64,000 nt of DNA from the IMG/VR virus record IMGVR_UViG_3300003322_001323, positions 10,534 through 74,533 of that record; one strand, 5' to 3'. The stretch comes from a virus. Positions 4,342 to 42,399 of this stretch are shown piece by piece. Numbering within the stretch: position 1 is the first letter of the stretch; the number at the start of each line of letters is the position of its first letter. Below the pieces are notes generated by a model. The model did not search any database. It worked only from the letters and a program-made list of their open reading frames with translations, and had not been told where the DNA came from. A program made the translations under genes and the position numbers.

Positions 4342-4761
4342 TTAAGGTGTCCAATGCTCCGGATCGGGAGCGCCGTCCATGCGCCGGCCCGTGTTAAACT
4401 CCACCTGTACGGCGCGATCGTCCCATAGTTCCGTCATGGCGAAGTCCTTGGTGGCCGTAATGGCGAGCACGCGGCCGATGTGCTGCTTGCACCAGCGCTC
4501 TATGGGCTTGCAGGCTAGGTCCAGCTCGCCGGGCGTACCCACGCGCGCGGTGAAGATGCGCACCTCCCGGCCCTCCTTAAGCCAGTTCTTTACGCGACGA
4601 ATCATGGGCATGATGGGCGGTCCGATATGATTATATCCGAGCCAGATGCCGTCCCAATGCGCGAGCGTTCCATCCAGGTCCACACCAATCCACCCTCTGG
4701 ATTTTGGCTTGGTGGCTCGGGTCTTGGAATGCTTGGCCGTATCAAACCGCTTGTTGGACAT
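4342..4761 (-). CDS. HAD-family phosphatase
   Basis: IGVDLDGTL, IFTAR, K, ELWDDRA motifs. Confidence 0.85.
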   Translation of the reverse strand: MSNKRFDTAKHSKTRATKPKSRGWIGVDLDGTLAHWDGIWLGYNHIGPPIMPMIRRVKNWLKEGREVRIFTARVGTPGELDLACKPIERWCKQHIGRVLAITATKDFAMTELWDDRAVQVEFNTGRRMDGAPDPEHWTP

Positions 4762-5347
4762 TCTGTTCCTTCATGATGGCAAAATAAACTTCGGCCGTGG
4801 CGCGGCAGTCCACTACCGCGCTGTGAGCGCCCTCGAAGCCGTCCGGATGCACGAAGTATTTGTAGGCTTCCTGCAGGTTCGGGGGCTTGTACTTGTCGAA
4901 GCCGGCCGCGCGCATGCGCTCGGTGGGCGGCAGCTTCATGATGGGCGTGGCGAGTTCCATGCAGCAGGTGATCTTGTCGGGACCTGGGTGCGAAGGCTGC
5001 CGGCCATAGCGATGGAAGGCGGTCCGCAGCACGGTCTCGTCGAACTTCTGGTTGAAGCCCACTACCTCGCTGGCGCGCGCTCGCAGCTGGGCAAAGACGC
5101 TCAGCGCCGTGGCCATCGGCACGCCGCACTCGCGCGCAATCTCGGTGGTGATGCCGTGAACGCGCGCCGCGCCCTCCGGTATGGTCCAGCCGTTGGGCTG
5201 GATTATGAGGTCGGCGGAGCAGACCTCCTTGCCCTCATCGGTGACGAGCAGGCAGCCCAGCTGCACCAGGTGCGGCTGCGTCGGGTGCCCCGGCGGCAGC
5301 GAGCTCTGCACTAGGCCGGTGGTTTCGGTGTCGTATACAAATATCAT
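4742..5347 (-). CDS. DEDDh 3'-5' exonuclease (DnaQ-like)
   Basis: YDTETTG, VHGI, NQKFD, AHSAVVDC. Confidence 0.92.
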   Translation of the reverse strand: MIFVYDTETTGLVQSSLPPGHPTQPHLVQLGCLLVTDEGKEVCSADLIIQPNGWTIPEGAARVHGITTEIARECGVPMATALSVFAQLRARASEVVGFNQKFDETVLRTAFHRYGRQPSHPGPDKITCCMELATPIMKLPPTERMRAAGFDKYKPPNLQEAYKYFVHPDGFEGAHSAVVDCRATAEVYFAIMKEQNVQQAV

Positions 5348-5362
5348 GGTGAATTATCTCCG

Positions 5363-5623
5363 CTATTTCGCGTGAATTGCGGGCAGGAGGACACACGCCA
5401 CCAGGTAGACGATGCCGACCCAATAAAGAAAATCGACGATGCGGACCCCCGCGTGCTCGGCCCATTTAACTCGCGGGTGCTGTCCAACCGCGCGAGAGCA
5501 TATTCCATCGTGGTCGGGATGGAGCTGGCAAAAGTCTGAATGTTCTCTCATTGAGATTCCTCCTAACAGTTTGGTGAACTCGCGGCTTTGGGTCAGATCG
5601 ACGGTGTTCAATTTGCGCTCCAT
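5363..5623 (-). CDS. Hypothetical protein with C-terminal transmembrane segment
   Basis: ORF filling the gap; FLYWVGIVYLVACVLL. Confidence 0.55.
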   Translation of the reverse strand: MERKLNTVDLTQSREFTKLLGGISMREHSDFCQLHPDHDGICSRAVGQHPRVKWAEHAGVRIVDFLYWVGIVYLVACVLLPAIHAK

Positions 5624-6082
5624 TTATCCGGCCAGGCGCCGCAGCCAGCGCCGCTTTGGCTCTGGCCGCACCGCCTTGGCGCGAGGGCGTGACGGGCGGG
5701 ACCATTCCCCGCCGTCCGTCAAACCCATGTCCATAAATCCTGCGGCCCGCAGGCTGGTGCCGGGTTCCTCCGGCAAGGTGTATGTCCAGGCTTCCCGATA
5801 CCCGAGTGCCTTTGCAGCTCGGCACAGGGCGCCATAGAGACAGGAGCAGGCATTCTCCGCGCCCTCGGTCGCCACCCTCGAAATCACGATGCGCCCGCTG
5901 TCCTGCCAAACCCGCGAAGGGTTGCCGGCGACGGCCACGCCCAGCACCGCGCCGTCATCACCCAGGACGCGAGCTGCAAAAAGACCCCCTTGCAGCTCGG
6001 GCAGGTGCCGGTGCCAAGCGCGCACGATGGCTCGCGCGGCTTTCACCGTGCAGGGCGCAATCGTGAGGCGGGACTGGCTCAA
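5624..6082 (-). CDS. XF1762-like protein (GNAT/Mom-like fold suspected)
   Basis: WHRH, VAVAGNP, SRVAT..ENACSCLYGA..RAAKALGY, TYTL.EEPGTSLRAAG. Confidence 0.8.
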   Translation of the reverse strand: MSQSRLTIAPCTVKAARAIVRAWHRHLPELQGGLFAARVLGDDGAVLGVAVAGNPSRVWQDSGRIVISRVATEGAENACSCLYGALCRAAKALGYREAWTYTLPEEPGTSLRAAGFMDMGLTDGGEWSRPSRPRAKAVRPEPKRRWLRRLAG

Positions 6083-10068: not shown

Positions 10069-10265
10069 TTCTTGCTCAACTCCACCTCAATCAGGTTGAT
10101 CGGAATGCCGCTCAGGTTGGACGCGGTTCGCAGGCGGTCCTGTGGGGTGCCATCGCGGCCGTCGCGTACGTAGCGCACCGCGGCCGCGAGCAGCTGGGCG
10201 CGTTGTGTCTCCAGGTTTCGGCACATGTCCCGGTCTGGAAAGGTATATATGGCGGTGCTATTCAT
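10065..10265 (-). CDS. Hypothetical protein
   Basis: GGGAG RBS, coupled to neighbours. Confidence 0.55.
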   Translation of the reverse strand: MNSTAIYTFPDRDMCRNLETQRAQLLAAAVRYVRDGRDGTPQDRLRTASNLSGIPINLIEVELSKK

Positions 10266-11214
10266 CGCGATACTCCCTTGGTAATGGGGCTTTGGCCTCG
10301 CCGGGCAGCATCTTGCGATACTGACGCCAGCCGGTGAAGTTGCCGTGCTGTTCTTTGTTCTTCCATTCATACTGGCCGGAGGTTCCATAGCTTTTGAACT
10401 CAAAAGTGTCGGGAGTGGCCTGGTGCTCCGCCGGCGAGGCGTGGATGGGCTCGTCGGGGTTGTAGTATTCCGTGCCGGGAATGTTGAGCCGGGCGTAGGT
10501 GCGCAGGTCCTCGCCCCAGCTGCTCTCCTTGCCGGTCTCGAAGCTGGAGGACGTCACGCGGGCGCAGCGCGCCACCGAGGTGATGCGCAGCCGGCGCTGC
10601 AGCTCCTCCCGGCTCAAATGCTTGGAGCAGTCCTCCCGCTCGCAGGTTAGGCGGTTGGGGTCGGTGGGGCCCACGTAGGGCAGATGCCACTCTCCCGGCG
10701 CCAGGTTAATCGGCACGCTGGCCTTGATCGCCGGCCACATCGCGTCGGCCAGCGCCTTGAACTCCGGCATGGCCATGTGATGGAGGCGCAAGCCGAAAAA
10801 GTTGTCGAAATCGGTAGCAGTGATGACGCCGTGAACCCACATAAACGGCTCCAGTAGCCGATTGGCAAGCTGCTTATGCAGTCCAAGAGCAGCTAACTGC
10901 TCCGCGTGCTCTACAGCTGATTGCGCGGCTCTATGCCATTCGTCCTTAGCGCAATTCAATGCTTCACCAGTCAATTCTTCCGCCGCCTGCATGCCGGCCT
11001 GGTTCTTTCCCCAGAAGACGGGCATGGCGGGGTTGGTGCGAACCTCCTCCAGCAGCTTCTTTACCGGCACGGCGCGCGAGCTCCGGTAGTTGCGGCTCAG
11101 CATGCGGTGCGTGTTGATTTCCGCCAGAATGAAGCGGTGCGCCGTGACCTGGACCGTGGTGAGCCGGACGCCGGCCGGCGAGAGGCTGTCGCAGATAACC
11201 TGGGCCTGAATCAC
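10258..11214 (-). CDS. thyX: FAD-dependent thymidylate synthase, phage type
   Basis: AEINTHRMLSRNYRSSRA (xHRxxSxxxxSxR), HKQLANRLLEPF, NFFGLR, HASPAEH. Confidence 0.88.
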   Translation of the reverse strand: MIQAQVICDSLSPAGVRLTTVQVTAHRFILAEINTHRMLSRNYRSSRAVPVKKLLEEVRTNPAMPVFWGKNQAGMQAAEELTGEALNCAKDEWHRAAQSAVEHAEQLAALGLHKQLANRLLEPFMWVHGVITATDFDNFFGLRLHHMAMPEFKALADAMWPAIKASVPINLAPGEWHLPYVGPTDPNRLTCEREDCSKHLSREELQRRLRITSVARCARVTSSSFETGKESSWGEDLRTYARLNIPGTEYYNPDEPIHASPAEHQATPDTFEFKSYGTSGQYEWKNKEQHGNFTGWRQYRKMLPGEAKAPLPREYRDE

Positions 11215-11711
11215 TTCTTGCGCTCCTTGCGAAAGAGGGTAGTTTTCGGTCCAAGCTCGGTAAGCGGCGCCGTAACCTCGCCCCGATGGATTTTTTCCAC
11301 CGTCTCCTGCACGGTGGCGTAAACCTGGAAGGCCACGTTGTTGGCGCGCTCCACCGTAACGAACCGGGCAAGCTTGTACTGCTCCGGGGTCAGCTTCTTC
11401 TGCTCCTTCGTTTCCGGCGCCATGTCCATGAAGCCACTGGCATAGGCCATGCCGGCGGCGAACAGCGCGCCAATGAAGACAGCATCGCCCGTGGGAATAT
11501 CAATATCCATGGCCTCCCGAATTTCCTCCAACGACCGTTTTACGGCCGGCAGGCGCTGCAAAATGTCAATGGCCGCGGTGGCCACGGCGGTTGCCTTGCG
11601 GTCCAGGCCGCCCTGCGCCTCGATCTGCTCGCGCACCTGCTGCCTGAACGCCTCCTGCCGCAGCTCGGGTGGAATGTCCTCCAGCAGCTTCTTGATAAAA
11701 TCCGGGTTCAT
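11211..11711 (-). CDS. Hypothetical protein
   Basis: AGGAG RBS before ATG 11711. Confidence 0.7.
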   Translation of the reverse strand: MNPDFIKKLLEDIPPELRQEAFRQQVREQIEAQGGLDRKATAVATAAIDILQRLPAVKRSLEEIREAMDIDIPTGDAVFIGALFAAGMAYASGFMDMAPETKEQKKLTPEQYKLARFVTVERANNVAFQVYATVQETVEKIHRGEVTAPLTELGPKTTLFRKERKK

Positions 11712-11721
11712 ATGAGTTCTC

Positions 11722-12264
11722 CTATGGGCTCTGCTTAATGAATATCTGGCCGCCATAAACCTTCTGCGCCCGGGACATGCGGCGCGCGTCCTCTAAGCCC
11801 AGGCCCAGAAGCAACGAGGGAAACCACTTTTGCTCAAAGGGCTTTCCGGTCGGCTTGTAGAAGGTCAGGCGGTGGTCGGGAAACCAGATGGCCGCGCTAT
11901 GCTCCATGATGAGCTGCGTCGCCCGGGTCTCGGTGGAGCGCCCGTTGAGCAGCGCTATCCCACTACGCTGCTCTATAAATTTTTTCGCCCACCGCAGCAC
12001 GCCGCGATAGGGCGGATTCATGAACACCCGGTCGCTCTCCCGCCACGGATACTCCAAGCCGCAAAGCGTCGCCGGATGGTAGAAACCCTTACGCGCCTTC
12101 CTAGCGCTGCCATCGGTCAACATCAACCGCGCAGTCCGCCACGGCATCTGCGGCGGGCAGCACGGGTCCAGGTCAAACGGCCCGAGCAGCTTCACCAGCT
12201 CCGGATCGGTGAGGTAGGTGTTGGACCAGTTCTGCTGGTCGGAATAGGGCTTGGCGTCAGGCAT
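11722..12264 (-). CDS. Phage DNA N6-adenine methyltransferase
   Basis: LGPFDLDPC and VFMNPPY motifs. Confidence 0.85.
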   Translation of the reverse strand: MPDAKPYSDQQNWSNTYLTDPELVKLLGPFDLDPCCPPQMPWRTARLMLTDGSARKARKGFYHPATLCGLEYPWRESDRVFMNPPYRGVLRWAKKFIEQRSGIALLNGRSTETRATQLIMEHSAAIWFPDHRLTFYKPTGKPFEQKWFPSLLLGLGLEDARRMSRAQKVYGGQIFIKQSP

Positions 12265-12724
12265 GCTGTCTCCAGGTATCCAGAGGCACACCCCTCAAAT
12301 ATACAAAGCTCCCCCTGCTCCGCTGCCAAAGGCTCCGCGAAGCGCTATCGTGGGCGTAGGGCTCGCGGAACACAATTCGCTTGCAGCCCGTATTCATCAG
12401 CAGCTTGACGCAGTGCAGGCAGGGGGAGTGTGTGGTGAAGCAGGTAAAGATGCGTCGCACGTCGGGGCACTTGAGCAGCGCGTTGGCCTCGGCGTGAATG
12501 GCCTCGCACAGCTCCAGGCCGGTGCCGGGCGCGCAATTGGCGCCGGCGCAAGGCGTATCAATGCAGTGCGGCATGCCGCTGGCCGGGCCGTTGTAGCCCG
12601 AGCTCAGCTCCACCCCGTCCACGTCAAACAGCACGCAGCCCACCTGCCGGCGAGCGCAGGTGCCGCGATCGGCCCACACGGCCGCCAGGCTCAAGCCGGT
12701 GTCGTCCTTGCTGATCCGACTCAC
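12257..12724 (-). CDS. dCMP deaminase
   Basis: CARRQVG, GYNG, HAEANA, SPCLHC; GTG overlaps upstream TGA. Confidence 0.93.
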   Translation of the reverse strand: MSRISKDDTGLSLAAVWADRGTCARRQVGCVLFDVDGVELSSGYNGPASGMPHCIDTPCAGANCAPGTGLELCEAIHAEANALLKCPDVRRIFTCFTTHSPCLHCVKLLMNTGCKRIVFREPYAHDSASRSLWQRSRGSFVYLRGVPLDTWRQHA

Positions 12725-13620
12725 GCGAACAGCTCTCCGAGGAAGTGGCTTGATTGCAACGACCATTGCCCCCGCGCGCAGGCCAAGAGGTGGGAAATCA
12801 GGTCGTCGCTTGACTGGAACTCGGCGAGGTTGAGCGAGCGTAGCGCGGGATTGCTCGCCTCGTTAAGGCAGGCCCGCGCACCCTCCAGGTCCACCTGGTA
12901 GAGGTGCTGCGAGCCGGCGGTGAGGGTGAGGTAGCCCAGCTGGAGCTCTTGAAGTGCTTCCAGATGACTGGTGGCTTCTTGAATGGTTTGCCCGTAGCAT
13001 GAGCTCATTGGAACGTCACCAACATTTTGCAGGAATTTAGTGGCGCGCTGTCGTAGTTCTAGCGCCACCACGGCCGCGGCCATTGAGAAGTTGAAGACGT
13101 CGTAGACCCAGCCGGTCCAGATGTCGGAGGAGCGCATGGTGGCAACGCAGTGAAGCTTGCCGCCGCGAATGAGGAACTGCCACGAGAGCGTGCAGGGCGT
13201 ATCCTTGCTCGGGCGGGGCTGCTCGCGCCAGATGTTCACCACCGCCTGGCGCGAAGCCGGGTCCTTGATGAGGGTGTCCACCACGAAGGAGAGTTGGTCC
13301 ACGAACTTGGGCCCATAGGCGCCGAAGTAGCGCCGGCCGTCGTCGCTCAGCTCCTTGATGGCTTTGGCATAGGGCGCGATCGTGGCGACGCGATTGTCGC
13401 CGGACAGAATCCAGGCGGCCTCGGCGCACATGAACTTGTAGCCGAGCTTGCGCGCTGGTGAAATCACCACGGGATGCTCCATTGGGATCACGGTCTGGTA
13501 GCCGATCAGCTCCCGGTTCTCGCGGCCGCGCCACGCGGCGCCAGCCGACATGGGTGATACCCGGACGCCGCTGTGCATCAGGTCCAGCAATGCTTTCTTC
13601 CAAATCAGGGTGGTGGTCAC
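12721..13620 (-). CDS. ThyA-fold pyrimidine C5 transferase, dCMP-type (methylase/hydroxymethylase)
   Basis: AEAAWILSG, GAYG, SRQA, DTPCT, MRSSDIWTGWVYD (Asp at ThyA Asn177 position), SQHLY. Confidence 0.88.
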   Translation of the reverse strand: MTTTLIWKKALLDLMHSGVRVSPMSAGAAWRGRENRELIGYQTVIPMEHPVVISPARKLGYKFMCAEAAWILSGDNRVATIAPYAKAIKELSDDGRRYFGAYGPKFVDQLSFVVDTLIKDPASRQAVVNIWREQPRPSKDTPCTLSWQFLIRGGKLHCVATMRSSDIWTGWVYDVFNFSMAAAVVALELRQRATKFLQNVGDVPMSSCYGQTIQEATSHLEALQELQLGYLTLTAGSQHLYQVDLEGARACLNEASNPALRSLNLAEFQSSDDLISHLLACARGQWSLQSSHFLGELFA

Positions 13621-14630
13621 AGCTGCAATGCCTCCTTTAACAGGGCTTGATATTTTTCGGGATGGCCGGCCTGGAAGCGGCGCGCCCACTGGGGATGCGG
13701 TACGTTGACCGCGTTGGGAAATCCCAATTCCTCAACGCTCCGCGCCGCGATGCCGCCCAGCGCAATCACGCGCGTGGTAGCGGAGAGGTAATCGCGCAGG
13801 AACGGCAGCCAGCGCTCGGGTGCGAGGGCGTTGGTCCATAGGGCCTGATCCTCGCAGAACTTTAGGTCGCGCAGGTGCGCATTCAGGTAGCTGGCCGAGC
13901 TCGGCGCGTCGCTCCACAGGAACGGCGCGGCGCGCGGGCAGGCCCGGGGCGAGAGGCCCTCGCCCACGAATAGGTATTTGGGATCGCGTGGGTTGCCGGT
14001 GAGATTTCCGGTGGGAGCTAGAAAGTCCCCACCAATGTCGCGCTGCAGCGCCCTCATACGACCCACGATGGTATCCATGCTGAGGCCCAGCATCTTGGGC
14101 GAGAGGCCCGCCACCTCGAAGTCGTACACCAGCACGTCATCGCGCAACGGATAATCCTGGAACTGGGTAAGCTGCTGATAATACCATTTACCACCCGCCG
14201 CCAGGTTGCCGTCGGCCAGGTCCAGGTAGCGCTGCGCCACCATCTCGATGCGAGCGAACTTCTCCCTGCGGCTATTCTTCAACTCCTCAAAATGGTGCAT
14301 GTGCCTAGCGAAGTCGTGCCGCACGCAGAGCACCGTCACCGCACCGTAGCGCATCAAAGCACGATCTAGGCATCTTGCGCCTAGATCGTACTTTGGCCCG
14401 CCGCGGAAGGTGTCGCCATATATCTGCTCGGAGAGCCAGAGCCGGTCAATGACCACCAGCCGCTTCTGGCTCATCTTGATGGCCAGGTCCACGGTCGCCA
14501 GGTGACGGAGCCAGATGTTGGGCCAGAGGCCGTTGTGGATATAGAAGGCGCCGTAGCGCTTAACCAGCTCGCGCGCGAGCGTGGTCTTGCCCGTGCCGTC
14601 GGCACCCTCTAGAACGATGATCCCACGCAT
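13617..14630 (-). CDS. dNMP kinase (P-loop) fused to uracil-DNA-glycosylase-like domain
   Basis: LEGADGTGKT, IDRLWLSEQIYG; C-terminal LFVGE, PF, WTNA, IALG..A, VPHP. Confidence 0.8.
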   Translation of the reverse strand: MRGIIVLEGADGTGKTTLARELVKRYGAFYIHNGLWPNIWLRHLATVDLAIKMSQKRLVVIDRLWLSEQIYGDTFRGGPKYDLGARCLDRALMRYGAVTVLCVRHDFARHMHHFEELKNSRREKFARIEMVAQRYLDLADGNLAAGGKWYYQQLTQFQDYPLRDDVLVYDFEVAGLSPKMLGLSMDTIVGRMRALQRDIGGDFLAPTGNLTGNPRDPKYLFVGEGLSPRACPRAAPFLWSDAPSSASYLNAHLRDLKFCEDQALWTNALAPERWLPFLRDYLSATTRVIALGGIAARSVEELGFPNAVNVPHPQWARRFQAGHPEKYQALLKEALQL

Positions 14631-14631
14631 C

Positions 14632-14820
14632 TCAGTCCTTCGGCCCAATCAGGTTGAGGCTCAGCTTGACGCCCTCCGGCGCGCCGTCCACCTTGGCGAA
14701 GCCGCCGGTGCTCGCGATCATGCGCGACTTGCCGGTGCCGCTCAGCGGCGCGGCCTTCACCTGCTCGGCGCTGCACGGAATGCGCACCACCACCTCGCCG
14801 TTTTCGTATGCGATCTTCAT
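14632..14820 (-). CDS. Small conserved phage protein
   Basis: GGGAG RBS; SGTGKSRMIASTGG. Confidence 0.75.
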   Translation of the reverse strand: MKIAYENGEVVVRIPCSAEQVKAAPLSGTGKSRMIASTGGFAKVDGAPEGVKLSLNLIGPKD

Positions 14821-14865
14821 TTAATTCTCCCAGCTCTGCTTCGAGGCTAAACCCTAACCTCTCGG

Positions 14866-14881
14866 GTAAACAAAAGTAAAC
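14866..14881 (-). promoter_or_regulatory. Tandem GTAAAC box (GTAAA-N5-GTAAA)
   Basis: Intergenic direct repeat with 10-bp period; same hexamer at four other intergenic sites. Confidence 0.55.
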
Positions 14882-14886
14882 ATCGT

Positions 14887-15375
14887 TTATTCGCCGACCC
14901 GGAAGCGCGCGGCGTGCCGCTCCAGCGCCGGCGCGTGATCCGGCGGCACAAAGTCAACCGGCTTCACCACGTCTAGGCTGTGTCCGCGAGTCGATCTTTC
15001 GTCGCTCGCGGACACGGCGCGCTCCTTGCTCATGTTGGCGCGCTGCACCTCGGCAAAGACCTCGTTGAGCGGAACGCCCATCATGTGCGCCGTGCCATCC
15101 AGAACATATTTCAGGTCGGCCAGTGCATCGGCGCCGCCCTCAAGGTCCTGCTGCGCTGGGTCCACGGGGTAGCTCTCGATGCTGCGGCTCATGTTCTGCA
15201 GCTGCACGCCAAGCCGGATCATGCCGCAGGCCTGCGCAAACTCGGCGAGCTCCTCCAGCAGAAAGGCCATGCGAAAGCGAACCACGTCATCGGTCGGAAA
15301 GCCCGGCGGGGTACCATCGGCCACCGCCAGCCCAAACTTCTTGTGAAACTCACCCACGGCCGTGAAGGTATCCAT
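14887..15375 (-). CDS. MazG-like (DR2231/PRA-PH) nucleotide pyrophosphohydrolase
   Basis: EFHKKFG, LLEELAEF, DALADLKYV, EVQRANMSK, VVKP. Confidence 0.88.
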   Translation of the reverse strand: MDTFTAVGEFHKKFGLAVADGTPPGFPTDDVVRFRMAFLLEELAEFAQACGMIRLGVQLQNMSRSIESYPVDPAQQDLEGGADALADLKYVLDGTAHMMGVPLNEVFAEVQRANMSKERAVSASDERSTRGHSLDVVKPVDFVPPDHAPALERHAARFRVGE

Positions 15376-15380
15376 AGCTC

Positions 15381-15920
15381 TTATCTCCGATTTAGAACGT
15401 TGATGATTTCGACCTCGCTGATGGGACGATAGTCGGCGTAGTCGCAGTCCACGCCCACGTCCAGGAAGGTGCAGCCTTCCAGCCGGGGCGAGTGCAGCTC
15501 GGGTCGGCCCTTACGGCCGTGCAGGTGCCCGTGCAGCACCAGGCCGGAGCCCATCGGGGCGTGCAGGTGGAGCCGATAGGGGTCATGGATCAGATGCGCC
15601 GGCGTACCGTTGGCCAGCGTCAGGGTCCGGTAATGGAAGACCTCACCCCAGCCGTTCGCCTTGTAGACATCGCGGTGATCGTGGTTGCCGATGCCCAGAT
15701 GCTTGCGGCCCTTGAGACCGGCCAGCACCTGCTCCAGGTCGCGCCGGCGCCAGTAGAGCGCCACGTCGCCCAGCACCCAGACGTCATCGGCGTCGCCCAC
15801 GGTGTCGTTCCACCGCTGCGTCAGCTGTTCCGTCATGTGGGCCAGGTCGCGAAATGGCCGCTCGCAGTAGTCAATGATCTTGTCGTGACCGAAATGGAGG
15901 TCGGAGGTAAAATAGTTCAT
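15381..15920 (-). CDS. Calcineurin-like metallophosphoesterase
   Basis: SDLHFGH, LGD, GNHD, HGHLH, DVGVD. Confidence 0.92.
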   Translation of the reverse strand: MNYFTSDLHFGHDKIIDYCERPFRDLAHMTEQLTQRWNDTVGDADDVWVLGDVALYWRRRDLEQVLAGLKGRKHLGIGNHDHRDVYKANGWGEVFHYRTLTLANGTPAHLIHDPYRLHLHAPMGSGLVLHGHLHGRKGRPELHSPRLEGCTFLDVGVDCDYADYRPISEVEIINVLNRR

Positions 15921-16129
15921 CCGTCCACCATCTTCGTTAGATGCCGCGCCCGCGCCGTTTCGCCACCTACATCGTGGAATGGACACGCCTTCTTGTGCGA
16001 GCCGCGCTGATAATAGTTCGCGCCGTTATAACCGCAAAAGACGCAGGGCGCCGCCAGCAGATTGCTAGCTAATACTGGCTCTAGCAACCGATCCAGTATG
16101 GCCTTAGCCTGTTTATTCAGCAGCTTCAC
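15917..16129 (-). CDS. Small zinc-binding hypothetical protein
   Basis: CVFC...H..AC; coupled. Confidence 0.6.
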   Translation of the reverse strand: MKLLNKQAKAILDRLLEPVLASNLLAAPCVFCGYNGANYYQRGSHKKACPFHDVGGETARARHLTKMVDG

Positions 16130-24732: not shown

Positions 24733-25136
24733 ATCGAGCTCCGGGCCGGCAGCACGGCCGGCGGATCAAAGGGCAGCGCGTAGTAGCCCTTGCCCCACAG
24801 TGTGGCAATGAATTTATCGTGCCCATAGGTACGCCGCAACTTGGTGCGCAGCTTGGACACGTAAACGTCCACCGTTTTTATCTCTGGCCAGTCAGCCTCC
24901 GCCTTGTCGTGGCAGATGGCGGCGTAGAGCCCGCCATCCTTCTTCACCAGGCGGCCCTCCGCCCGCAGCAGGGCTCCCACCACCGCGCCCTCGTGGTTGG
25001 TCAACGTGATGCTGAGCCCGCCGGCCAGCAGCACGCACAGCTCCTCGTCGTAAACCCAGCCTCCCCAATCCAGCAGGCGGGGCATATCCAGATTTCCATT
25101 GCAGTGTGGACAAAACCGCAGCACTTGTCCCGTCAT
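24729..25136 (-). CDS. Receiver-less OmpR-family (CtrA-like) winged-helix protein with N-terminal CPHC
   Basis: LTNHE, PEIKTVDVYVSKLRTKL, IATLWGKGY. Confidence 0.85.
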   Translation of the reverse strand: MTGQVLRFCPHCNGNLDMPRLLDWGGWVYDEELCVLLAGGLSITLTNHEGAVVGALLRAEGRLVKKDGGLYAAICHDKAEADWPEIKTVDVYVSKLRTKLRRTYGHDKFIATLWGKGYYALPFDPPAVLPARSSM

Positions 25137-25147
25137 CTTCCAGCTCC

Positions 25148-26719
25148 CTACATGGCCTCCGGCTTGGAAAGAGCCGGCAGCTTGAACTCCTCGGTCTGCT
25201 TCGAAAAGGCCGGGAGCACCCACAAATTCACAATCTTGCCCTTGATGGTCCGCACCTCGCTGATGGCGCGGCGCCGGTGCAGAAACTTCCAGATGGCGCG
25301 CTCGTCAATGCCGGACACGCGATGCTGCTGGAGATATTGGAGAAAGTCCGAGGACTGAAAGTAAACCAGGCCCGCCGCCTCGTCCGTGTAGGGCTTGCCC
25401 ATGATTACCTCGTCCAGCTCCTTGGCAATCACCTTGCCGGTGCAGAAGCGGTGCAGGAAGCTCCACCACTGACCCTCGCGGGTGGCGTCCTCCGGCACGT
25501 CCACTTCCTCCGCCTCGTCCATCAGCCCCTGGACCAGCTCCATCCACTTGGCGGGCTTGATCGGCCGCGGCCAGAAGCTGGTGGCCTCGATCACGGCCGC
25601 GGCAAACCGCATCTGGTTCATGAAGGTCGGTGTGTCAATCTCCAGACGGCGCTCATTTACCTCGATGATCCAGGTTACTGGATCGGTCTTGAGCTTTACC
25701 ACCTTTCCAAACGCGACGTCGCTTGTATCGGAGAGCGGAATCTTCTCCTTTTTCTTCGGCGTTATTCCAAACTCGCACTTGGCGCAGGCCTTCTTGTCGC
25801 ACAGCTCCTTGATCGGTGACTGCTCGCACATGTAGAAGTAGTCGCGCTTGGTCACCGAGCGCGCCACCCCCTGCATTTCCTTGAAGGGCAGGGGGTTTTC
25901 CAGCAACTCGTTTAGCGGCTGCATATGGTCCATGAACTTTTCCAGCCCGTAGCGCGCCTTGGCGTAGCGGGCCAGGTTGAAAAGCATATTGTTGTCCCAA
26001 TCGCCGAACTTTTTCTCGCGCACCCCGCGCGTGAAGCACGGTGGTGCACCGCGCAGCAAATCGTCCAGGCCGCCGGTGGACGGCAGCGCCTGGACCTCGA
26101 TCGCCGCGAGCATTCCCGGTCCGCTCAGCGCCGCGTCGGCCGCAACCGCCAGGAACCCTTCGGGAGTCATAGCCTCGCCGGTTACCGGGTTCAGCGCGTA
26201 GCGATTGGAGAACTCGCCGCCGGCATAGGGCATGTTGATCCAGTTGCCCGTACCGTCATCGTCGATGGTATCCTGCTTGGGAAAGACTTCCACGCCGGCG
26301 TAGCCCAGGGCTTCCGCCCACTTGGCGAGTTGGGCACGCACGAGCGCGGCCGGCGCCGGGTTATCGAGAAATAAATATAGATGCGCACCGCCGGACTTGG
26401 TGCGACAGACGATAAGCGGCAGCTTTAGCCGCTGTACCCGTGCGTTGAGGGCCTTAAGGTCCAGGCCATCGTAGATGTCAATATCGATGGCGCCAAACCG
26501 GCACTCGCTGTTCTCGTTGATCGGCACGACGCCGATGGCGTAGGAGCCGCTGAGATGCTTCTCCCAGAGCTCGGCCGTATAGGTGCTGTGAACGGTCTTG
26601 CGCTTGCCGGTCAGCTTGCCCTTGGCGTCGGCCGTGAGGCCGCCACCCAGCGCGTAGGTGCCGTGGCCTCGTTGAAGCCCGGCGAAGCGCGCATAAAATT
26701 GTTCGGCAAGCGATGACAT
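25148..26719 (-). CDS. Archaeo-eukaryotic-type primase (prim-pol) with Cys cluster domain
   Basis: AIDID, TKSGGAHLY, EVFPKQ, GNWINMPY; PPC...YMC...LCDKKAC. Confidence 0.85.
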   Translation of the reverse strand: MSSLAEQFYARFAGLQRGHGTYALGGGLTADAKGKLTGKRKTVHSTYTAELWEKHLSGSYAIGVVPINENSECRFGAIDIDIYDGLDLKALNARVQRLKLPLIVCRTKSGGAHLYLFLDNPAPAALVRAQLAKWAEALGYAGVEVFPKQDTIDDDGTGNWINMPYAGGEFSNRYALNPVTGEAMTPEGFLAVAADAALSGPGMLAAIEVQALPSTGGLDDLLRGAPPCFTRGVREKKFGDWDNNMLFNLARYAKARYGLEKFMDHMQPLNELLENPLPFKEMQGVARSVTKRDYFYMCEQSPIKELCDKKACAKCEFGITPKKKEKIPLSDTSDVAFGKVVKLKTDPVTWIIEVNERRLEIDTPTFMNQMRFAAAVIEATSFWPRPIKPAKWMELVQGLMDEAEEVDVPEDATREGQWWSFLHRFCTGKVIAKELDEVIMGKPYTDEAAGLVYFQSSDFLQYLQQHRVSGIDERAIWKFLHRRRAISEVRTIKGKIVNLWVLPAFSKQTEEFKLPALSKPEAM

Positions 26720-40000: not shown

Positions 40001-40281
40001 GTCATCTAAGCGATTTTACTTATCATCTGATCGAAAACCGCGAGGGTACGCCCGTGGAAGTGGGGACCATCGTTTCGGTCTTTACCAACCTGGGCAACTA
40101 TCTGCCGGGCAGCACGCCGGCGGAGCAGCGCGATTACGCGCGCCGCGAGCTGATGCCTGAGAAAATGCTGGCCTTCGATGCGGAGGCGGACACCTTCGAC
40201 ACCATCAACGAGGGCGAAGCGCCAGAGGATTTTCTCATTCGTCGCGACAAGGGCCTAAAGGACAGCGGGTTCCGTGCCTAG
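39997..40281 (+). CDS. Hypothetical protein bearing LAFDA motif
   Basis: ATG 39997 with GAGG RBS, coupled. Confidence 0.6.
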   Translation: MSHLSDFTYHLIENREGTPVEVGTIVSVFTNLGNYLPGSTPAEQRDYARRELMPEKMLAFDAEADTFDTINEGEAPEDFLIRRDKGLKDSGFRA

Positions 40282-40906
40282 CGTTTCGGAGAAGCAGCAC
40301 AACGCGATGGAAGCGGCCGCGCATGGTCACTCCACGCTTGGTATCCCCAAGAGCGTGGGCCAGGAATTTGTCGAGGCCGACAAGGTGGCCAAGGACGCGG
40401 AGCCGCGCGCCGCGGGCGTGCTGGTACGGGATGCGGACGGTCGCGTGCTGTTCGCGCGCCGCTCGGGCACCGGCGACTATGGTGGGCACTGGGCGCTGTT
40501 TGGCGGTGGCGTGGAGAGCGGCGAGACCGATGAGGAGGCAGCACGGCGTGAATTGATGGAGGAGAGCGGCTACCAGGCCGACAGCCTCACCCCGGTGCAC
40601 GAGCATTACTTCAACGGGCTCAACTTCGCGACCTTCGCGCACGACGCCGGCTCGCAGTTCATTCCCAAGCTCACGGGCGAACACGACGCCTGGGCCTGGG
40701 CGCACCCGAGCTCGCCGCCATCCCCCCTGCACCCCGGCGTGGCCGCCACGCTCGGCGACATCGCGCGCGAGCAGGAGGCGCGGTTCACCTGGGGGCCGGA
40801 TCAATTGGAGATAATACAGCCGGAAAATCCCCAGCCGGCGCCGCCGTACATTGAGGAGATTGACGACCCCGGCGAGGCCGCGGTGGAGCTGGAAATCTCC
40901 GAGTGA
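40274..40906 (+). CDS. Nudix hydrolase with N-terminal leader
   Basis: Complete Nudix box G-GVESG-E-TDEEAAR-RELMEESG. Confidence 0.92.
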   Translation: MPSVSEKQHNAMEAAAHGHSTLGIPKSVGQEFVEADKVAKDAEPRAAGVLVRDADGRVLFARRSGTGDYGGHWALFGGGVESGETDEEAARRELMEESGYQADSLTPVHEHYFNGLNFATFAHDAGSQFIPKLTGEHDAWAWAHPSSPPSPLHPGVAATLGDIAREQEARFTWGPDQLEIIQPENPQPAPPYIEEIDDPGEAAVELEISE

Positions 40907-42399
40907 TCCCGAACCTGAACGCGCTGGCGCGCCTGGCCTTTGACGAGGGCGATTGGAAGGAGAGCCAGCATCCGCGCGACCCGAAGGGTCAGTTCACGAG
41001 CGGGGGCGGGAGCTCCGGCACCGGCCCGAGCAACTCGAACAAGCCGGTACAGGTCTCCACCACGATCGGCACGCCGCTGAGCAAGGCCGGCTTCAAGAAG
41101 GTGAAGCAGCCCGGACCGAACGGCAGCGTGACCTTCTTTCACCCGAGCGGGGTGAAGGTCCACGTGCACCCGGCGCCCGAGGGCAAGAAATATTCCAGCA
41201 AGTGGACGCATGAGGCGGAAGGCGCGCAGACGCAGGGGGAGGGCTCCAAGCTGGAGCAGCTTCTCGCCAAGCTGGTGCAGAAGGCGGAGGCGGCGAAGCC
41301 GGCGCCAACGCTGAAGGCAATGGGCACGCACGAGTTTACGCCGAATGGCAGCAGCAACGCCGAAAAGATCGCCGACATCGAGAGCAAGGGATGGAAGTTT
41401 GCCGGCGTTAGCAAGGAGGGAGATAAAACCCTCTTTAATGGTGGAGGAGCGGGTTGCGTCTTCAACAATAAGACGGGAACTGCCACCACCTACATGCATT
41501 TTAGCGACGCGCAGCAGGCGGTTAACGCAGAAGCGCCTGCGCTAAGTGAAAACGAACAAGCGTTCATAAAGGCGAGTGGTACCTTCGCCAAGGAGCAGGG
41601 CTACAAGCCGATTGACATAGATGGAAGTACGATAATCTATGCTAAGGAAAACGGGGCCAAACTACAAATCAGTGCTGGCAATGGACATTGGGTTGCTTCA
41701 ACTCCGGGACACGTGACCAAGGAAGGTTATAGCCTGGACAATTTGAAACAATTGCTAACCACGAATACCGTACCTTCTGGCGTTTTTAATTCGCAATTCG
41801 CCATTCAGACCCAGGCTGAGAAGGTAGCCGCCACCAAAGCGCAGAAAGAGGCGCAGAAGGCGCAGGCCGAGGCTAGCAAGCACAAGAAGCTCTATACCAA
41901 GCTCAAGGACCAGGCGCCGCACCCGACCTCGACGCAGCAGAATGCCATCGCCAAATACAGCGGCTCGGGCTATTCGTCCTGGAACGATAAGCTGCGGCAC
42001 GATCCGAACTACGCCAAGACCGACCCGCTGACGAAGCACCTGGATGATTATTTGAACAACGCCACCTTTGAGGAAGATTTCACCGTTACCCGTAAGGTGG
42101 ATGGTGAATACGCCAAAATCCTCAAGAGCATCATCTTCGAGGGGACGAAGTTCATCGATCGTGGCTACGTTAGCACCAGCGCCACGGGGCAATGGCATGG
42201 TAGCTTAAAGTTCATCATCAACATCAAGAAGGGCCAGAAGGGCGCGGCGATCGGCAAGTGGTCGCACCACCCGAGCGAGGACGAGGTGCTGCTACCGCGA
42301 AATTCGGCCTTTGTGGTCAAGACCTATGACGCGGCGAACAACACCATCCACGTGGATTTGGACCAGAGCCATTTTGAGGAGAAGAAGGCGGCCGCATGA
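40903..42399 (+). CDS. ADP-ribosyltransferase (VIP2/C3/T4 Alt-like R-S-E clade), multidomain
   Basis: YSGSGY..WN.KLR, VTRKV, GYVSTS, SEDEVLLPRNS. Confidence 0.88.
   Translation: MIPNLNALARLAFDEGDWKESQHPRDPKGQFTSGGGSSGTGPSNSNKPVQVSTTIGTPLSKAGFKKVKQPGPNGSVTFFHPSGVKVHVHPAPEGKKYSSKWTHEAEGAQTQGEGSKLEQLLAKLVQKAEAAKPAPTLKAMGTHEFTPNGSSNAEKIADIESKGWKFAGVSKEGDKTLFNGGGAGCVFNNKTGTATTYMHFSDAQQAVNAEAPALSENEQAFIKASGTFAKEQGYKPIDIDGSTIIYAKENGAKLQISAGNGHWVASTPGHVTKEGYSLDNLKQLLTTNTVPSGVFNSQFAIQTQAEKVAATKAQKEAQKAQAEASKHKKLYTKLKDQAPHPTSTQQNAIAKYSGSGYSSWNDKLRHDPNYAKTDPLTKHLDDYLNNATFEEDFTVTRKVDGEYAKILKSIIFEGTKFIDRGYVSTSATGQWHGSLKFIINIKKGQKGAAIGKWSHHPSEDEVLLPRNSAFVVKTYDAANNTIHVDLDQSHFEEKKAAA

Follow-up and report, generated by a model that had tools for sequence, protein, structure and literature searches.

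A T4-style gene set in an uncultured root-associated phage, most likely for swapping DNA cytosine for a modified cytosine

In the 64,000-nucleotide stretch of viral DNA analysed here (the window; positions 10,534 to 74,533 of IMG/VR record IMGVR_UViG_3300003322_001323), a gene for a protein of the ThyA (thymidylate synthase, TS) fold is coupled to a gene for a dCMP deaminase, with a ThyX-family gene further down the same string. This arrangement raises the question of what the ThyA-fold enzyme makes, and whether its product is destined for DNA or for the thymidylate pool. The genes most likely represent a T4-style set by which this uncultured root-associated phage swaps the cytosine of its DNA for a modified cytosine, 5-hydroxymethylcytosine (5hmC) being favoured; the set is assembled from protein families other than those of T4, and the kind of system is already known.

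The gene string

All of the operon genes named in an earlier note on this DNA were found, including the MazG-like and phosphoesterase genes that it had placed upstream (PF01503 and phrog_547), and all lie on the minus strand (open reading frame list, Pfam, and PHROGs). The features are as follows.

10258..11214, minus strand: divergent ThyX-family protein, 318 aa (PF02511, 38 bits, cut-off 24.8; phrog_85, E 6e-73)
11211..11711, minus strand: orf166, 166 aa, whose stop overlaps the ThyX start
11722..12264, minus strand: small protein resembling DNA methyltransferases, NPPY motif present (phrog_111 'DNA methyltransferase', E 3.2e-17)
12257..12724, minus strand: dCMP-family deaminase, 155 aa (PF00383, E 8.8e-15; phrog_174, E 2.6e-34)
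12721..13620, minus strand: ThyA-fold enzyme, 299 aa, predicted dCMP 5-hydroxymethylase (5hmdCMP synthase; PF00303, MilA match, residues)
13099..13101, minus strand: Asp codon GAC, equivalent to Asn177 of E. coli ThyA (alignments)
13201..13203, minus strand: Asp codon GAT, equivalent to Leu143 of E. coli ThyA (alignment)
13617..14630, minus strand: kinase-UDG fusion, 337 aa (AlphaFold model, structural matches, 87 homologues)
14632..14820, minus strand: small ORF, 62 aa (no match in Pfam or PHROG searches)
14887..15375, minus strand: MazG-like all-alpha NTP pyrophosphohydrolase (PRA-PH PF01503, E 2.8e-13; phrog_671, E 6.5e-25)
15381..15920, minus strand: calcineurin-type metallophosphoesterase, 179 aa, ATG at 15920 (phrog_547 'phosphoesterase', E 1.6e-36)
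16113..17630, minus strand: C5-cytosine DNA methyltransferase homologue, 505 aa (PF00145, E 4.4e-23)

The MazG-like, kinase-UDG, ThyA-fold, dCMP deaminase, adenine-methylase-like, and divergent ThyX genes form a single tightly coupled minus-strand string, three junctions of which, read directly from the sequence, are GTGA overlaps. Two of these chain the kinase-UDG, ThyA-fold, and deaminase genes as the note had described: the kinase-UDG stop overlaps the ThyA-fold start, with AAGGAGG just 5' of it, and the ThyA-fold stop overlaps the deaminase start. The third joins the orf166 stop to the ThyX start. The same reading showed a ATGCCTGA overlap between the deaminase stop and the start of the methyltransferase-like gene at 11722..12264, an ATGA overlap between the phosphoesterase ATG and the orf70 stop, and the stop of the 62-aa ORF 1 nt ahead of the kinase ATG. 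The starts at 13620 (ThyA-fold) and 12724 (deaminase) are supported by homologues, the longest-ORF starts lying further upstream at 13689 and 12766. ThyX is indeed downstream and within the string, but it is not beside the deaminase, as two genes intervene.

The kinase-ThyA(Asp177)-deaminase core is conserved in 37 viral loci, many of which show the order MazG / kinase / ThyA(Asp177) / deaminase / PolA. A thymidylate kinase (TMK)-like gene directly precedes the ThyA-like gene in at least 32 of the 37, a deaminase homologue directly follows it in 22, and a MazG homologue lies 5' of the kinase in 23; the kinase may stand alone or be fused, to MazG in six loci and to UDG in 13. Outside this core, the phosphoesterase (nearest PDB entry aq_1665, 1xm7, E 6.6e-7) has a homologue only in the close relative L010, whose counterpart of the 62-aa ORF is 93% identical, and orf166 matched nothing in Pfam, PHROGs, or NCBIfam. 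The NPPY protein is methyltransferase-like, of the adenine-N6 or cytosine-N4 type, with a weak Dam match under the cut-off (PF05869, E 8.8e-4). The C5-methyltransferase homologue, in which the catalytic PC motif can be read, heads the same gene string and is found nearby in only L010 among the 37 relatives; the pathway proposed below does not account for it, and in fully substituted DNA it would be without a substrate.

Substrate and product of the ThyA-fold enzyme

The ThyA-fold protein scores 68.6 bits against PF00303 (cut-off 24.3) but only 59 bits against the NCBIfam TS equivalog (cut-off 327). Its best PDB sequence match (E 2.7e-21) is MilA, the CMP 5-hydroxymethylase of mildiomycin biosynthesis (PDB 5b6d and 5jp9), which acts in antibiotic synthesis and not in DNA modification. 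The structural model (pLDDT 89.9) matches MilA with Z 23.7 (31% identity, 252 residues) and TS with Z 22.7 (21–24% identity); its alignment to E. coli TS reaches no further than residue 253 of 264, and the C-terminal tail with which TS closes over the folate is missing.

The Asp that had been noted at the E. coli Asn177 position is confirmed, as GAC is read there and the MAFFT alignment, which includes E. coli ThyA, T4 gp42, and the Xp12 and PaMx74 enzymes, agrees with a HMMER alignment to MilA. A second Asp occupies the Leu143 position (D140), three residues ahead of the catalytic Cys (codon 13192-13194), and both are invariant across 28 clade members. With these two positions replaced, the enzyme retains E58, Y94, C146, R166, S167, D169, H207, and Y209. 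MilA has both Asp residues as well, but it prefers the ribonucleotide by way of Ala176 and Lys133, in contrast to deoxyribo-specific TS and T4 dCMP hydroxymethylase (PMC5175136); the phage enzyme follows the latter two, with Ser167 and Arg126. Asp177 together with Ser167 and Arg126 fits a deoxyribo-cytosine substrate and supports the dCMP-type enzyme that the note had predicted.

As for the product, methyl-forming TS carry a bulky Leu at position 143, and T4-like 5hmdCMP synthases and MilA an acidic residue, which is the published correlate, short of proof, of a hydroxymethyl rather than a methyl product (PMC13326640). In our alignment, this position is Asp in T4 gp42, MilA, and PaMx11 gp51, Leu in E. 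coli, and Asn in Xp12 and PaMx74. Because the phage enzyme has Asp143, lacks the TS tail, and has MilA as its closest solved relative, and because no dihydrofolate reductase (DHFR) was found across the 74.5-kb genome or in any of 29 related records, a hydroxymethyl product is favoured. The note's expectation of a cytosine modification feeding DNA is thereby kept, and of its alternatives, 5-methyl or hydroxymethyl dCMP, the latter is favoured by the Leu143-position signature and by several independent indications. A separate candidate identity, 5-hydroxy-dCMP synthase, is ruled out by the retained Asp169 (signature from PMC13326640).

The enzyme might instead be a dCMP methylase of the Xp12 type, giving 5-methylcytosine (5mC) in the virion, with the deaminase acting on 5-methyl-dC nucleotides to supply thymidylate; we consider this unlikely. 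Xp12-type enzymes also have Asp177, Xp12 and PaMx74 show the same gene order of pyrophosphohydrolase / TS homologue / deaminase, and their Asn143 means that a polar residue at this position is compatible with methylation. According to Yang et al. (2024, bioRxiv 10.1101/2024.12.05.627091), 5mdCMP was made by five of seven tested deaminase-adjacent Asp177 TS homologues, and many such deaminases prefer 5mC. The lack of a hydroxymethyl-decorating enzyme among the 60 proteins scanned, and the fact that most relatives have no other thymidylate synthase (ThyX in 2 of 29 related records), would suit methylation too. However, Asp143 and the missing tail argue against it, as the Xp12 and PaMx74 enzymes retain a TS-like C-terminus in the alignment and, in a quick maximum-likelihood tree, group with E. 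coli ThyA (SH-aLRT 94), apart from the clade of the phage enzyme. T4 gp42 forms a long branch in this tree and lies outside the best 60 PDB matches of the ThyA-fold protein. Furthermore, DHFR adjoins the deaminase in Xp12 and PaMx74 but is absent in 30 of 30 genomes here, and the phage's own ThyX makes a 5mdC-to-dT bypass unneeded.

Cultured relatives bear on the same choice. Stenotrophomonas phage AXL3 and Pseudoxanthomonas phage PW916, both siphoviruses, share the order MazG / kinase-UDG (327 aa) / ThyA-like / deaminase, and their ThyA-like proteins, 38–41% identical to the phage enzyme, have both Asp143 and Asp177; AXL3 also shares ThyX. Unlike this phage, their modules are without a C5-methyltransferase and have a Methyltransf_23-type SAM methyltransferase adjoining MazG. 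AXL3 DNA withstood every one of the 35 enzymes whose sites contain G/C, KpnI and Eam1105I included (PMC7504290), whereas KpnI and AhdI cut Xp12 5mC DNA completely and T4gt 5hmC DNA resists both (PMC7653180). Resistance of AXL3 to KpnI and the AhdI isoschizomer matches 5hmC and not 5mC DNA, in a comparison that involves a 38%-identical relative, an extra SAM methyltransferase, and restriction enzymes of another supplier.

It may also be that 5hmC, or some other C5 adduct, is only an intermediate, the final base being a cytosine modified further by unrecognised enzymes, although we hold this to be quite improbable. AXL3 DNA withstands XbaI too, which partly cuts T4gt 5hmC DNA, a conserved SAM methyltransferase lies beside MazG in 18 of 29 relatives, and two methyltransferase-like genes lie within the operon; the C5-methyltransferase-like protein or the NPPY methylase might be involved. 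Nevertheless, the relatives' SAM methyltransferase is absent from this phage, and searches found no amino-acid transferase, PLP enzyme, or radical-SAM enzyme. The earlier statement that neither DHFR nor a glycosyltransferase is visible also holds, for DHFR across the genome and for glycosyltransferases across a Pfam scan of 60 proteins. These proteins likewise include no carbamoyl- or other known hydroxymethyl-decorating enzyme, and the 29 related records no carbamoyltransferase; 5hmC, if made, would be undecorated.

The kinase-UDG fusion and the proposed pathway

In the AlphaFold model of the fusion (pLDDT 95.6), VIA-align matches residues 1-200 to thymidylate kinases with Z about 13 and residues 193-337 to the T. 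maritima family-4 UDG 1vk2 (Z 12.6, rmsd 2.9 Å, 136 residues). The N-terminal part is thus a predicted TMK-like dNMP kinase, putatively acting on modified dCMP. For the C-terminal part (about residues 193-337), the modelled structure confirms a family-4-like UDG domain at the level of fold, as the note's naming implied; profile searches of the fusion gave weak type-4 UDG/UDGX matches (E about 0.01). The fusion has 87 homologues, mostly about 335 aa. The P-loop and D62-R63 do not vary, and conservation covers the UDG-type motifs VG[E/D]xx[S/N]P, P236-F237, N267, and H312-P313-Q but no Fe-S cysteines. The UDG-fold domain has no place in the pathway proposed below.

Retention of base-binding motifs by this domain in 50 homologues speaks for a variant of the further-modification reading, in which the fusion might work on DNA, with base flipping by the UDG fold as in 5-HMUDK-type thymidine pathways. 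Against this, kinase-only and MazG-kinase forms occupy the same place ahead of the ThyA-like gene; the TMK fold, together with an invariant DR motif taken as TMK-type, also points to a mononucleotide kinase.

We therefore favour, with a probability of roughly 0.6, a T4-type module that replaces cytosine ahead of replication. From the observed gene order and coupling, domains and folds, active-site residues, and core conservation, we infer the substrates and products, a dCTPase role of MazG, and 5hmC in the virion. The MazG-like enzyme (nearest PDB entry D. radiodurans MazG-like DR2231, E 1.9e-8) would serve as dCTPase/dUTPase, the counterpart of T4 gp56, and convert dCTP and dUTP to monophosphates. 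The ThyA-fold enzyme would take the methylene from CH2-THF, transfer it to dCMP at C5 and, as its active site is proposed to be open to water, release THF and 5-hydroxymethyl-dCMP. This 5hmdCMP, presumably a poor substrate for host Cmk, would be phosphorylated by the kinase from the gene just 5'. Host NDP kinase would complete 5hmdCTP, and phage PolA would incorporate it into DNA.

In a parallel branch, the deaminase would convert part of the dCMP to dUMP; its zinc motifs HAE and PCxxC are intact, and its PDB matches are S. mutans dCMP deaminase (E 2.5e-12), cyanophage S-TIM5, and T4 cd. The ThyX-like protein, a predicted flavin-dependent synthase, would then convert dUMP to dTMP without dihydrofolate output, so that deaminase and ThyX are most simply an ordinary T4-like dCMP-dUMP-dTMP branch. 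This branch is insecure because ThyX is very divergent: it scores under the cut-off of TIGR02170, a phmmer search gave no PDB match, and its motif reads T-H-R-M-L-S-R-N-Y-R-S-S-R, with the first Arg of RHR replaced.

That the operon rewires the nucleotide pool only, dCMP passing through a C5-modified intermediate and deamination to dTMP while virion DNA stays unmodified, seems to us highly improbable. The translational coupling of the ThyA-like and deaminase genes would be consistent with it, and a 5mdCTP-to-dTTP bypass is published, 5mC-selective deaminases bypassing a second thymidylate synthase in the account of Yang et al. (2024, bioRxiv 10.1101/2024.12.05.627091). However, at least 32 of the 37 loci have a dedicated kinase, sometimes MazG-fused, coupled to the ThyA-like gene, which argues that the product enters the triphosphate pool, whereas for dTMP the host Tmk would suffice. 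In addition, a hydroxymethyl-type active site would yield hm-dUMP rather than dTMP, AXL3 DNA is resistant to restriction, and contigs with this neighbourhood are reported to be enriched in C-modified DNA fractions (PMC8670742; bioRxiv 10.1101/2024.12.05.627091). Since the genome carries ThyX as well as this kinase, the dUMP-independent route to dTMP or hm-dUMP that the note had offered is unneeded.

Relation to known systems

The T4 pathway (gp56 dCTPase/dUTPase, gp42 dCMP hydroxymethylase, gp1 dNMP kinase, cd, and td) has the same inferred logic and activities. T4 gp42 is far in sequence from the phage protein but shares Asp177, Asp143, the retained Asp169, and the missing TS C-terminal tail (PMC5175136; PMC13326640). 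The families differ role by role, with MazG/PRA-PH for gp56, the TMK-like-UDG fusion for gp1, and ThyX for td and frd, and, in contrast to T4, the phage is without a glucosyltransferase and has its genes in one coupled operon. The Xp12/PaMx74 5mC pathway shares Asp177 and gene order, and differs in the tree position, C-terminus, Asn143, and DHFR described above; the Xp12 and PaMx74 records have no kinase annotated beside the TS gene.

Closest in arrangement are the metavirome neighbourhoods of Yang (2021, eLife; 2024, bioRxiv), whose accessible portions do not mention an obligatory kinase partner, kinase-UDG and MazG-kinase fusions, or a MilA-like subclade. There, the Asp177 TS homologues of C-modified phages have dCMP-family deaminases and PRA-PH genes as neighbours (Yang et al., 2024, bioRxiv 10.1101/2024.12.05.627091), and these genes are tied experimentally to C-modified phage DNA (PMC8670742; bioRxiv 10.1101/2024.12.05.627091). 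Their set "Asp177 TS + dCMP-family deaminase + PRA-PH + PolA" is the same neighbourhood as in this phage; the arrangement of Asp177 ThyA, deaminase, and PRA-PH is already published, and the general idea is not new.

The gene string and its genome

The viral record is complete at 74,533 bp with direct terminal repeats, and the window covers its bases 10534-74533. Among sequencing runs, the main carrier of this DNA is a root metagenome, which is probably the source sample; no RNA run is among the listed carriers. The large terminase shares ~51% identity with its counterparts in Rhizobium and Sinorhizobium phages and in Pseudanabaena phage Pam3. The minus strand holds the replication and nucleotide genes across about the first half of the window, and the plus strand encodes head, tail, and baseplate proteins beyond ~33 kb. 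The string of pyrimidine genes described in an earlier note was recovered, with all the named genes in order on the minus strand; with the operon as query, megablast gave no match among 50,697 phage records.

Genes of the string in order (orf70, orf62, and orf166 are ORFs, the latter two with no assigned function)
16113-17630, minus: C5-cytosine methyltransferase homologue, first in the string, followed by orf70
15381-15920, minus: metallophosphoesterase
14887-15375, minus: MazG/PRA-PH pyrophosphohydrolase, followed by orf62
13617-14630, minus: kinase-UDG fusion
12721-13620, minus: ThyA-fold gene
12257-12724, minus: dCMP-family deaminase
11722-12264, minus: NPPY methyltransferase-like gene, followed by orf166
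10258-11214, minus: ThyX-family gene, followed by a small ORF and a DUF3310 gene

The ThyA-fold gene really starts with the GTG at 13620 and the deaminase gene with the GTG at 12724, the points from which homologues align, so that each overlaps the stop of the preceding gene in a GTGA; the proposed GTGA chaining of the kinase-UDG, ThyA-fold, and deaminase genes is thus seen at both junctions. A third GTGA overlap joins orf166 to ThyX, and the junction between the deaminase and the NPPY methyltransferase-like gene is ATGCCTGA. Promoter- and terminator-like sites are scarcer in this region than in shuffled sequence, and the boundaries of the operon therefore cannot be set from the promoter and terminator scan.

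Substrate and predicted product of the ThyA-fold enzyme

The ThyA-fold protein (299 aa) is a member of the thymidylate synthase (TS) superfamily, as it matches PF00303 at 68.6 bits (cut-off 24.3), and its model aligns with TS and with MilA, a CMP 5-hydroxymethylase, at Z 22-24 over ~240-250 residues. It was aligned with E. coli ThyA, T4 gp42, the TS homologues of phages Xp12 and PaMx74, PaMx11 gp51, and three phage relatives. In E. coli numbering, it retains Glu58, Tyr94, the catalytic Cys146, Arg166, Ser167, Asp169, His207, and Tyr209, and most of its conserved TS residues are invariant across 28 members of its clade. The Asp noticed earlier at the position of Asn177 (codon 13099-13101) is confirmed by both alignment and codon reading, and a HMMER alignment places it opposite Asp186 of MilA (MilA numbering; PMC5175136). 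A canonical thymidylate synthase, converting dUMP to dTMP, was rejected because this Asp replaces the uracil-specifying residue and, further, because Asp143 replaces the shielding Leu143, the C-terminal tail is missing, and the score with the NCBIfam thymidylate synthase equivalog is 59 bits against a cut-off of 327. A MilA-like hydroxymethylase of the ribonucleotide CMP is excluded by the Ser167 (codon 13129-13131) and Arg126 (codon 13249-13251) equivalents, which are those of deoxyribo-specific TS and T4 CH (gp42), whereas MilA has Ala and Lys (PMC5175136).

The earlier note had left the product as either methyl- or hydroxymethyl-dCMP. According to the experiment-backed signatures of Lee et al. 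2026 (PMC13326640), Asp177 denotes a cytosine substrate; a bulky Leu143 keeps water out and associates with methyl products, an acidic residue at 143 associates with hydroxymethyl products, as in T4-like synthases and MilA, and 5-hydroxy-dCMP synthases of the RB69 gp48/DLP3 gp80 type are recognized by an Asn instead of Asp169. Codon reading gives Asp143, Asp169 (codon 13123-13125), and Asp177, all three invariant in 28 clade members, and this is the T4 gp42/MilA-type dCMP 5-hydroxymethylase signature; a 5-hydroxy-dCMP synthase is ruled out by the retained Asp169. MilA is also the top match in a PDB sequence search (E 2.7e-21, with the best TS at E 4e-14) and in structural comparison (Z 23.7 and 31% identity, with TS at Z 22.7 and 21-24% identity). 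The alignment of the model to E. coli TS stops at residue 253 of 264, and the enzyme thus has no C-terminal tail to close over folate, a feature that is also missing from T4 CH (PMC5175136).

Two observations speak against a hydroxymethyl product, namely that the Xp12 and PaMx74 methylases carry Asn rather than Leu at 143 and that Yang et al. obtained 5mdCMP from five of the seven Asp177 TS homologues that they assayed (bioRxiv 10.1101/2024.12.05.627091). In a quick ML tree, in which T4 gp42, PaMx11, and E. coli ThyA sit on very long branches, the dCMP methylases of Xp12 and PaMx74 group with E. coli ThyA (SH-aLRT 94), apart from the present clade. These two enzymes retain a TS-like C-terminus, whereas the tail is absent here, and both phages have a DHFR gene after the deaminase, whereas the window's genome has none. 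The absence of DHFR from the window, as noted earlier, extends to the complete genome and to 29 related viral records (10 of them at least 90% complete), and this absence from 30 of 30 genomes is a circumstantial sign that the enzyme releases THF rather than DHF. The quick tree, the C-terminus, and the missing DHFR all stand against an Xp12-type dCMP methylase. Overall, the three Asp residues, the proximity to MilA, the loss of the tail, the tree, and the lack of DHFR favor hydroxymethyl over methyl; as indications rather than proof, they make the predicted enzyme look like a hydroxymethylase.

Two cultured relatives, Stenotrophomonas phage AXL3 and Pseudoxanthomonas phage PW916, have methyltransferase, MazG, kinase-UDG, ThyA-like (Asp143, Asp177), and deaminase genes in this order, as here, and AXL3 also has ThyX. 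AXL3 DNA is cut only by enzymes with AATT and TTAA sites, and 35 enzymes with G/C sites, including KpnI and Eam1105I, fail (PMC7504290). Because KpnI and AhdI cut Xp12 (5mC) DNA completely and T4gt (5hmC) DNA resists both (PMC7653180), the AXL3 base is not plain 5mC; 5hmC or a bulkier derivative fits the pattern. XbaI cuts T4gt DNA partially and AXL3 DNA not at all (PMC7653180; PMC7504290). The PW916 paper reports no DNA-modification data. Of 29 related viral records, 18, among them AXL3 and PW916, encode a Methyltransf_23 SAM methyltransferase beside MazG, which the window's own genome lacks; in the phages that carry it, this enzyme may alter the cytosine derivative further. This protein of ~280 aa is encoded immediately upstream of MazG (as in the related locus L038:5805-6641 and AXL3 gp31) and is present in 8 of 10 near-complete records.

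Deaminase, ThyX, and the kinase partner

The deaminase matches PF00383 at 54.9 bits (cut-off 25) and PDB dCMP deaminases at E 2.5e-12, and has both zinc motifs, H-A-E (IHAEANAL) and P-C-x-x-C (SPCLHC). Its substrate preference is not readable from the sequence, since selectivity for 5mC is reported for such deaminases (mSCD; Yang 2024) as a polyphyletic trait without a sequence signature. The ThyX-family protein matches PF02511 at 38 bits (cut-off 24.8) over profile positions 60-190 only, falls under the TIGR02170 cut-off, has no phmmer match in the PDB, and has Thr in place of the first Arg in the RHR of its RHRxxS....SxR motif. It is unusually divergent, with a C-terminal extension of ~150 aa. 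The presence of this gene beside a hydroxymethylase-like enzyme makes a T4-like branch, from dCMP through dUMP to dTMP, the simplest reading, with the last step predicted to be carried out by the very divergent ThyX. The dUMP-independent route to dTMP that the earlier note had offered as an alternative loses ground to this simpler branch, and the kinase partner likewise argues that the product is destined for DNA.

Relatives of the ThyA-like enzyme, 38-80% identical, were found in 37 IMG/VR loci, many of which run on into PolA. The gene immediately upstream encodes a TMK-like kinase in at least 32 of them, MazG lies upstream in 23, and a deaminase follows directly in 22. The near-constant kinase speaks for a product that feeds the triphosphate pool and DNA, and not merely thymidylate by deamination. 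The kinase occurs in three forms: stand-alone in pelagiphage-type contigs such as HTVC200P, with a UDG fold fused at its C-terminus (13 loci), or with MazG fused at its N-terminus (6 loci). The last are single ORFs that immediately precede the ThyA(Asp177) gene and indicate that MazG and the kinase belong to one pathway.

MazG-kinase fusion ORFs in related viral loci
L026:2867-3856
L030:6950-7999
L033:7009-7986
L035:4144-5115
L040:3310-4308
L042:6953-7918

The window's own MazG-like protein matches PF01503 at 50.5 bits (cut-off 21.3) and DR2231 at E 1.9e-8. In the cultured Pelagibacter phage HTVC200P (L003), positions 4535-5813 hold a kinase and ThyA(Asp143, Asp177) pair, 48% identical to the window enzyme, and the pair is also present in the cultured pelagiphage HTVC119P; the 10.7 kb of HTVC200P that were examined carry no deaminase annotation. 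Judging from these genes, the DNA of both phages is predicted to contain C5-modified cytosine.

The kinase-UDG fusion belongs to a family with 87 members in the protein collection, and its AlphaFold model has a pLDDT of 95.6. Its residues 1-200 align with thymidylate and deoxynucleoside kinases at Z ~13 (over ~160 residues for thymidylate kinases), with G9, D11, G14, and K15 of the P-loop and D62-R63 of the DR motif invariant. The N-terminal part thus has the P-loop, DR motif, and TMK fold of thymidylate/dNMP kinases, with a Pfam TMK score of 24 bits, just under the 27-bit cut-off. Residues 193-337 match the family-4 UDG 1vk2 of T. maritima (Z 12.6, rmsd 2.9 A, 136 residues). Across 50 homologues, the acidic residue of a motif-A-like VG[E/D]xx[S/N]P and a Pro-Phe pair are conserved, Asn is present in 49, and His-Pro-Gln (motif B, HP[SQ]) is invariant. 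Yet this domain has no conserved Cys, and hence none of the four that belong to the Fe-S cluster in family 4; it matches no Pfam UDG model at E <= 0.01, and a profile of the domain reaches only E ~0.01 against the PDB. To go by the model, it would work like a UDG-like pyrimidine-base binder, and it is not to be classed as family 4.

We consider it rather unlikely that this domain is a working enzyme specific to phages with C5-modified cytosine, either as a glycosylase or as a base-flipping module. A glycosylase may excise what deamination of the modified base leaves behind, 5hmU or U, which would arise from the phage's own deaminase and a high dU flux and which host Ung may be unable to excise. 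Base flipping, in turn, may give the kinase access to hydroxymethyl groups within DNA, starting an undescribed cytosine hypermodification.

Comparison with known systems and other genes of the window

The pathway logic is that of T4 (gp56, gp42, gp1, cd, and td), but each role is taken here by a different family. A neighborhood of Asp177 TS, deaminase, and PRA-PH, with or without PolA, has been linked to cytosine-modified DNA (PMC8670742; bioRxiv 10.1101/2024.12.05.627091). The module is genuine and well conserved and is of an ordinary kind, and it leaves the understanding of such pathways unchanged. The reading that we favor, T4-type replacement of cytosine before replication with 5hmC as the most likely base, adds a soil/root phage lineage to those predicted to do so, and the same enzyme clade brings in HTVC200P-type pelagiphages and the cultured AXL3 and PW916. 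For the G/C modification of AXL3, this reading leads to a testable prediction, namely a base derived from 5hmC and not 5mC. In addition, the kinase partner and its MazG and UDG-fold fusions are annotation markers for such modules, and the UDG-fold domain is a candidate enzyme.

The C5-cytosine methyltransferase homologue that heads the same translationally coupled string (505 aa, Pro-Cys motif intact) is odd in this setting, since replacement of all cytosine before replication would leave it without a substrate. It has a C-terminal extension of ~180 aa. Among the 37 relatives, the methyltransferase gene is shared only by the locus L010. A scan of 60 proteins revealed no glycosyltransferase, carbamoyltransferase, TET, PLP, or radical-SAM enzyme, which bears out the lack of a glycosyltransferase noted earlier, and the 29 relatives have no carbamoyltransferase. 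Several palindromes are below expectation in the window's whole genome (GGATCC 0 versus 9.7, GATATC 0 versus 9.2, GTCGAC 1 versus 9.8, TGATCA 3 versus 18.5, and ACCGGT 6 versus 22.3), and this avoidance, as a proxy for unprotected sites, reaches only z -3 to -3.6 in a set of 64 palindromes. The most avoided 4-mers are CTAG and TCGA.

Elsewhere in the window, a 199-aa protein (23802-24401, minus) shows a weak, sub-cut-off match to the nucleoside 2-deoxyribosyltransferase family (PF05014, E 3.9e-5), a superfamily to which nucleotide N-glycosidases such as MilB belong. Within the head-gene block (40274-42399, plus), a NUDIX hydrolase (PF00293, E 3e-20) adjoins an ADP-ribosyltransferase (PF03496, E 4.5e-18). 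The replication module contains two UvrD-like helicase paralogues of 510 and 513 aa (901-2433 and 21152-22693, both minus), and two neighboring OmpR-type winged-helix (Trans_reg_C) proteins are encoded at 24322-25223.
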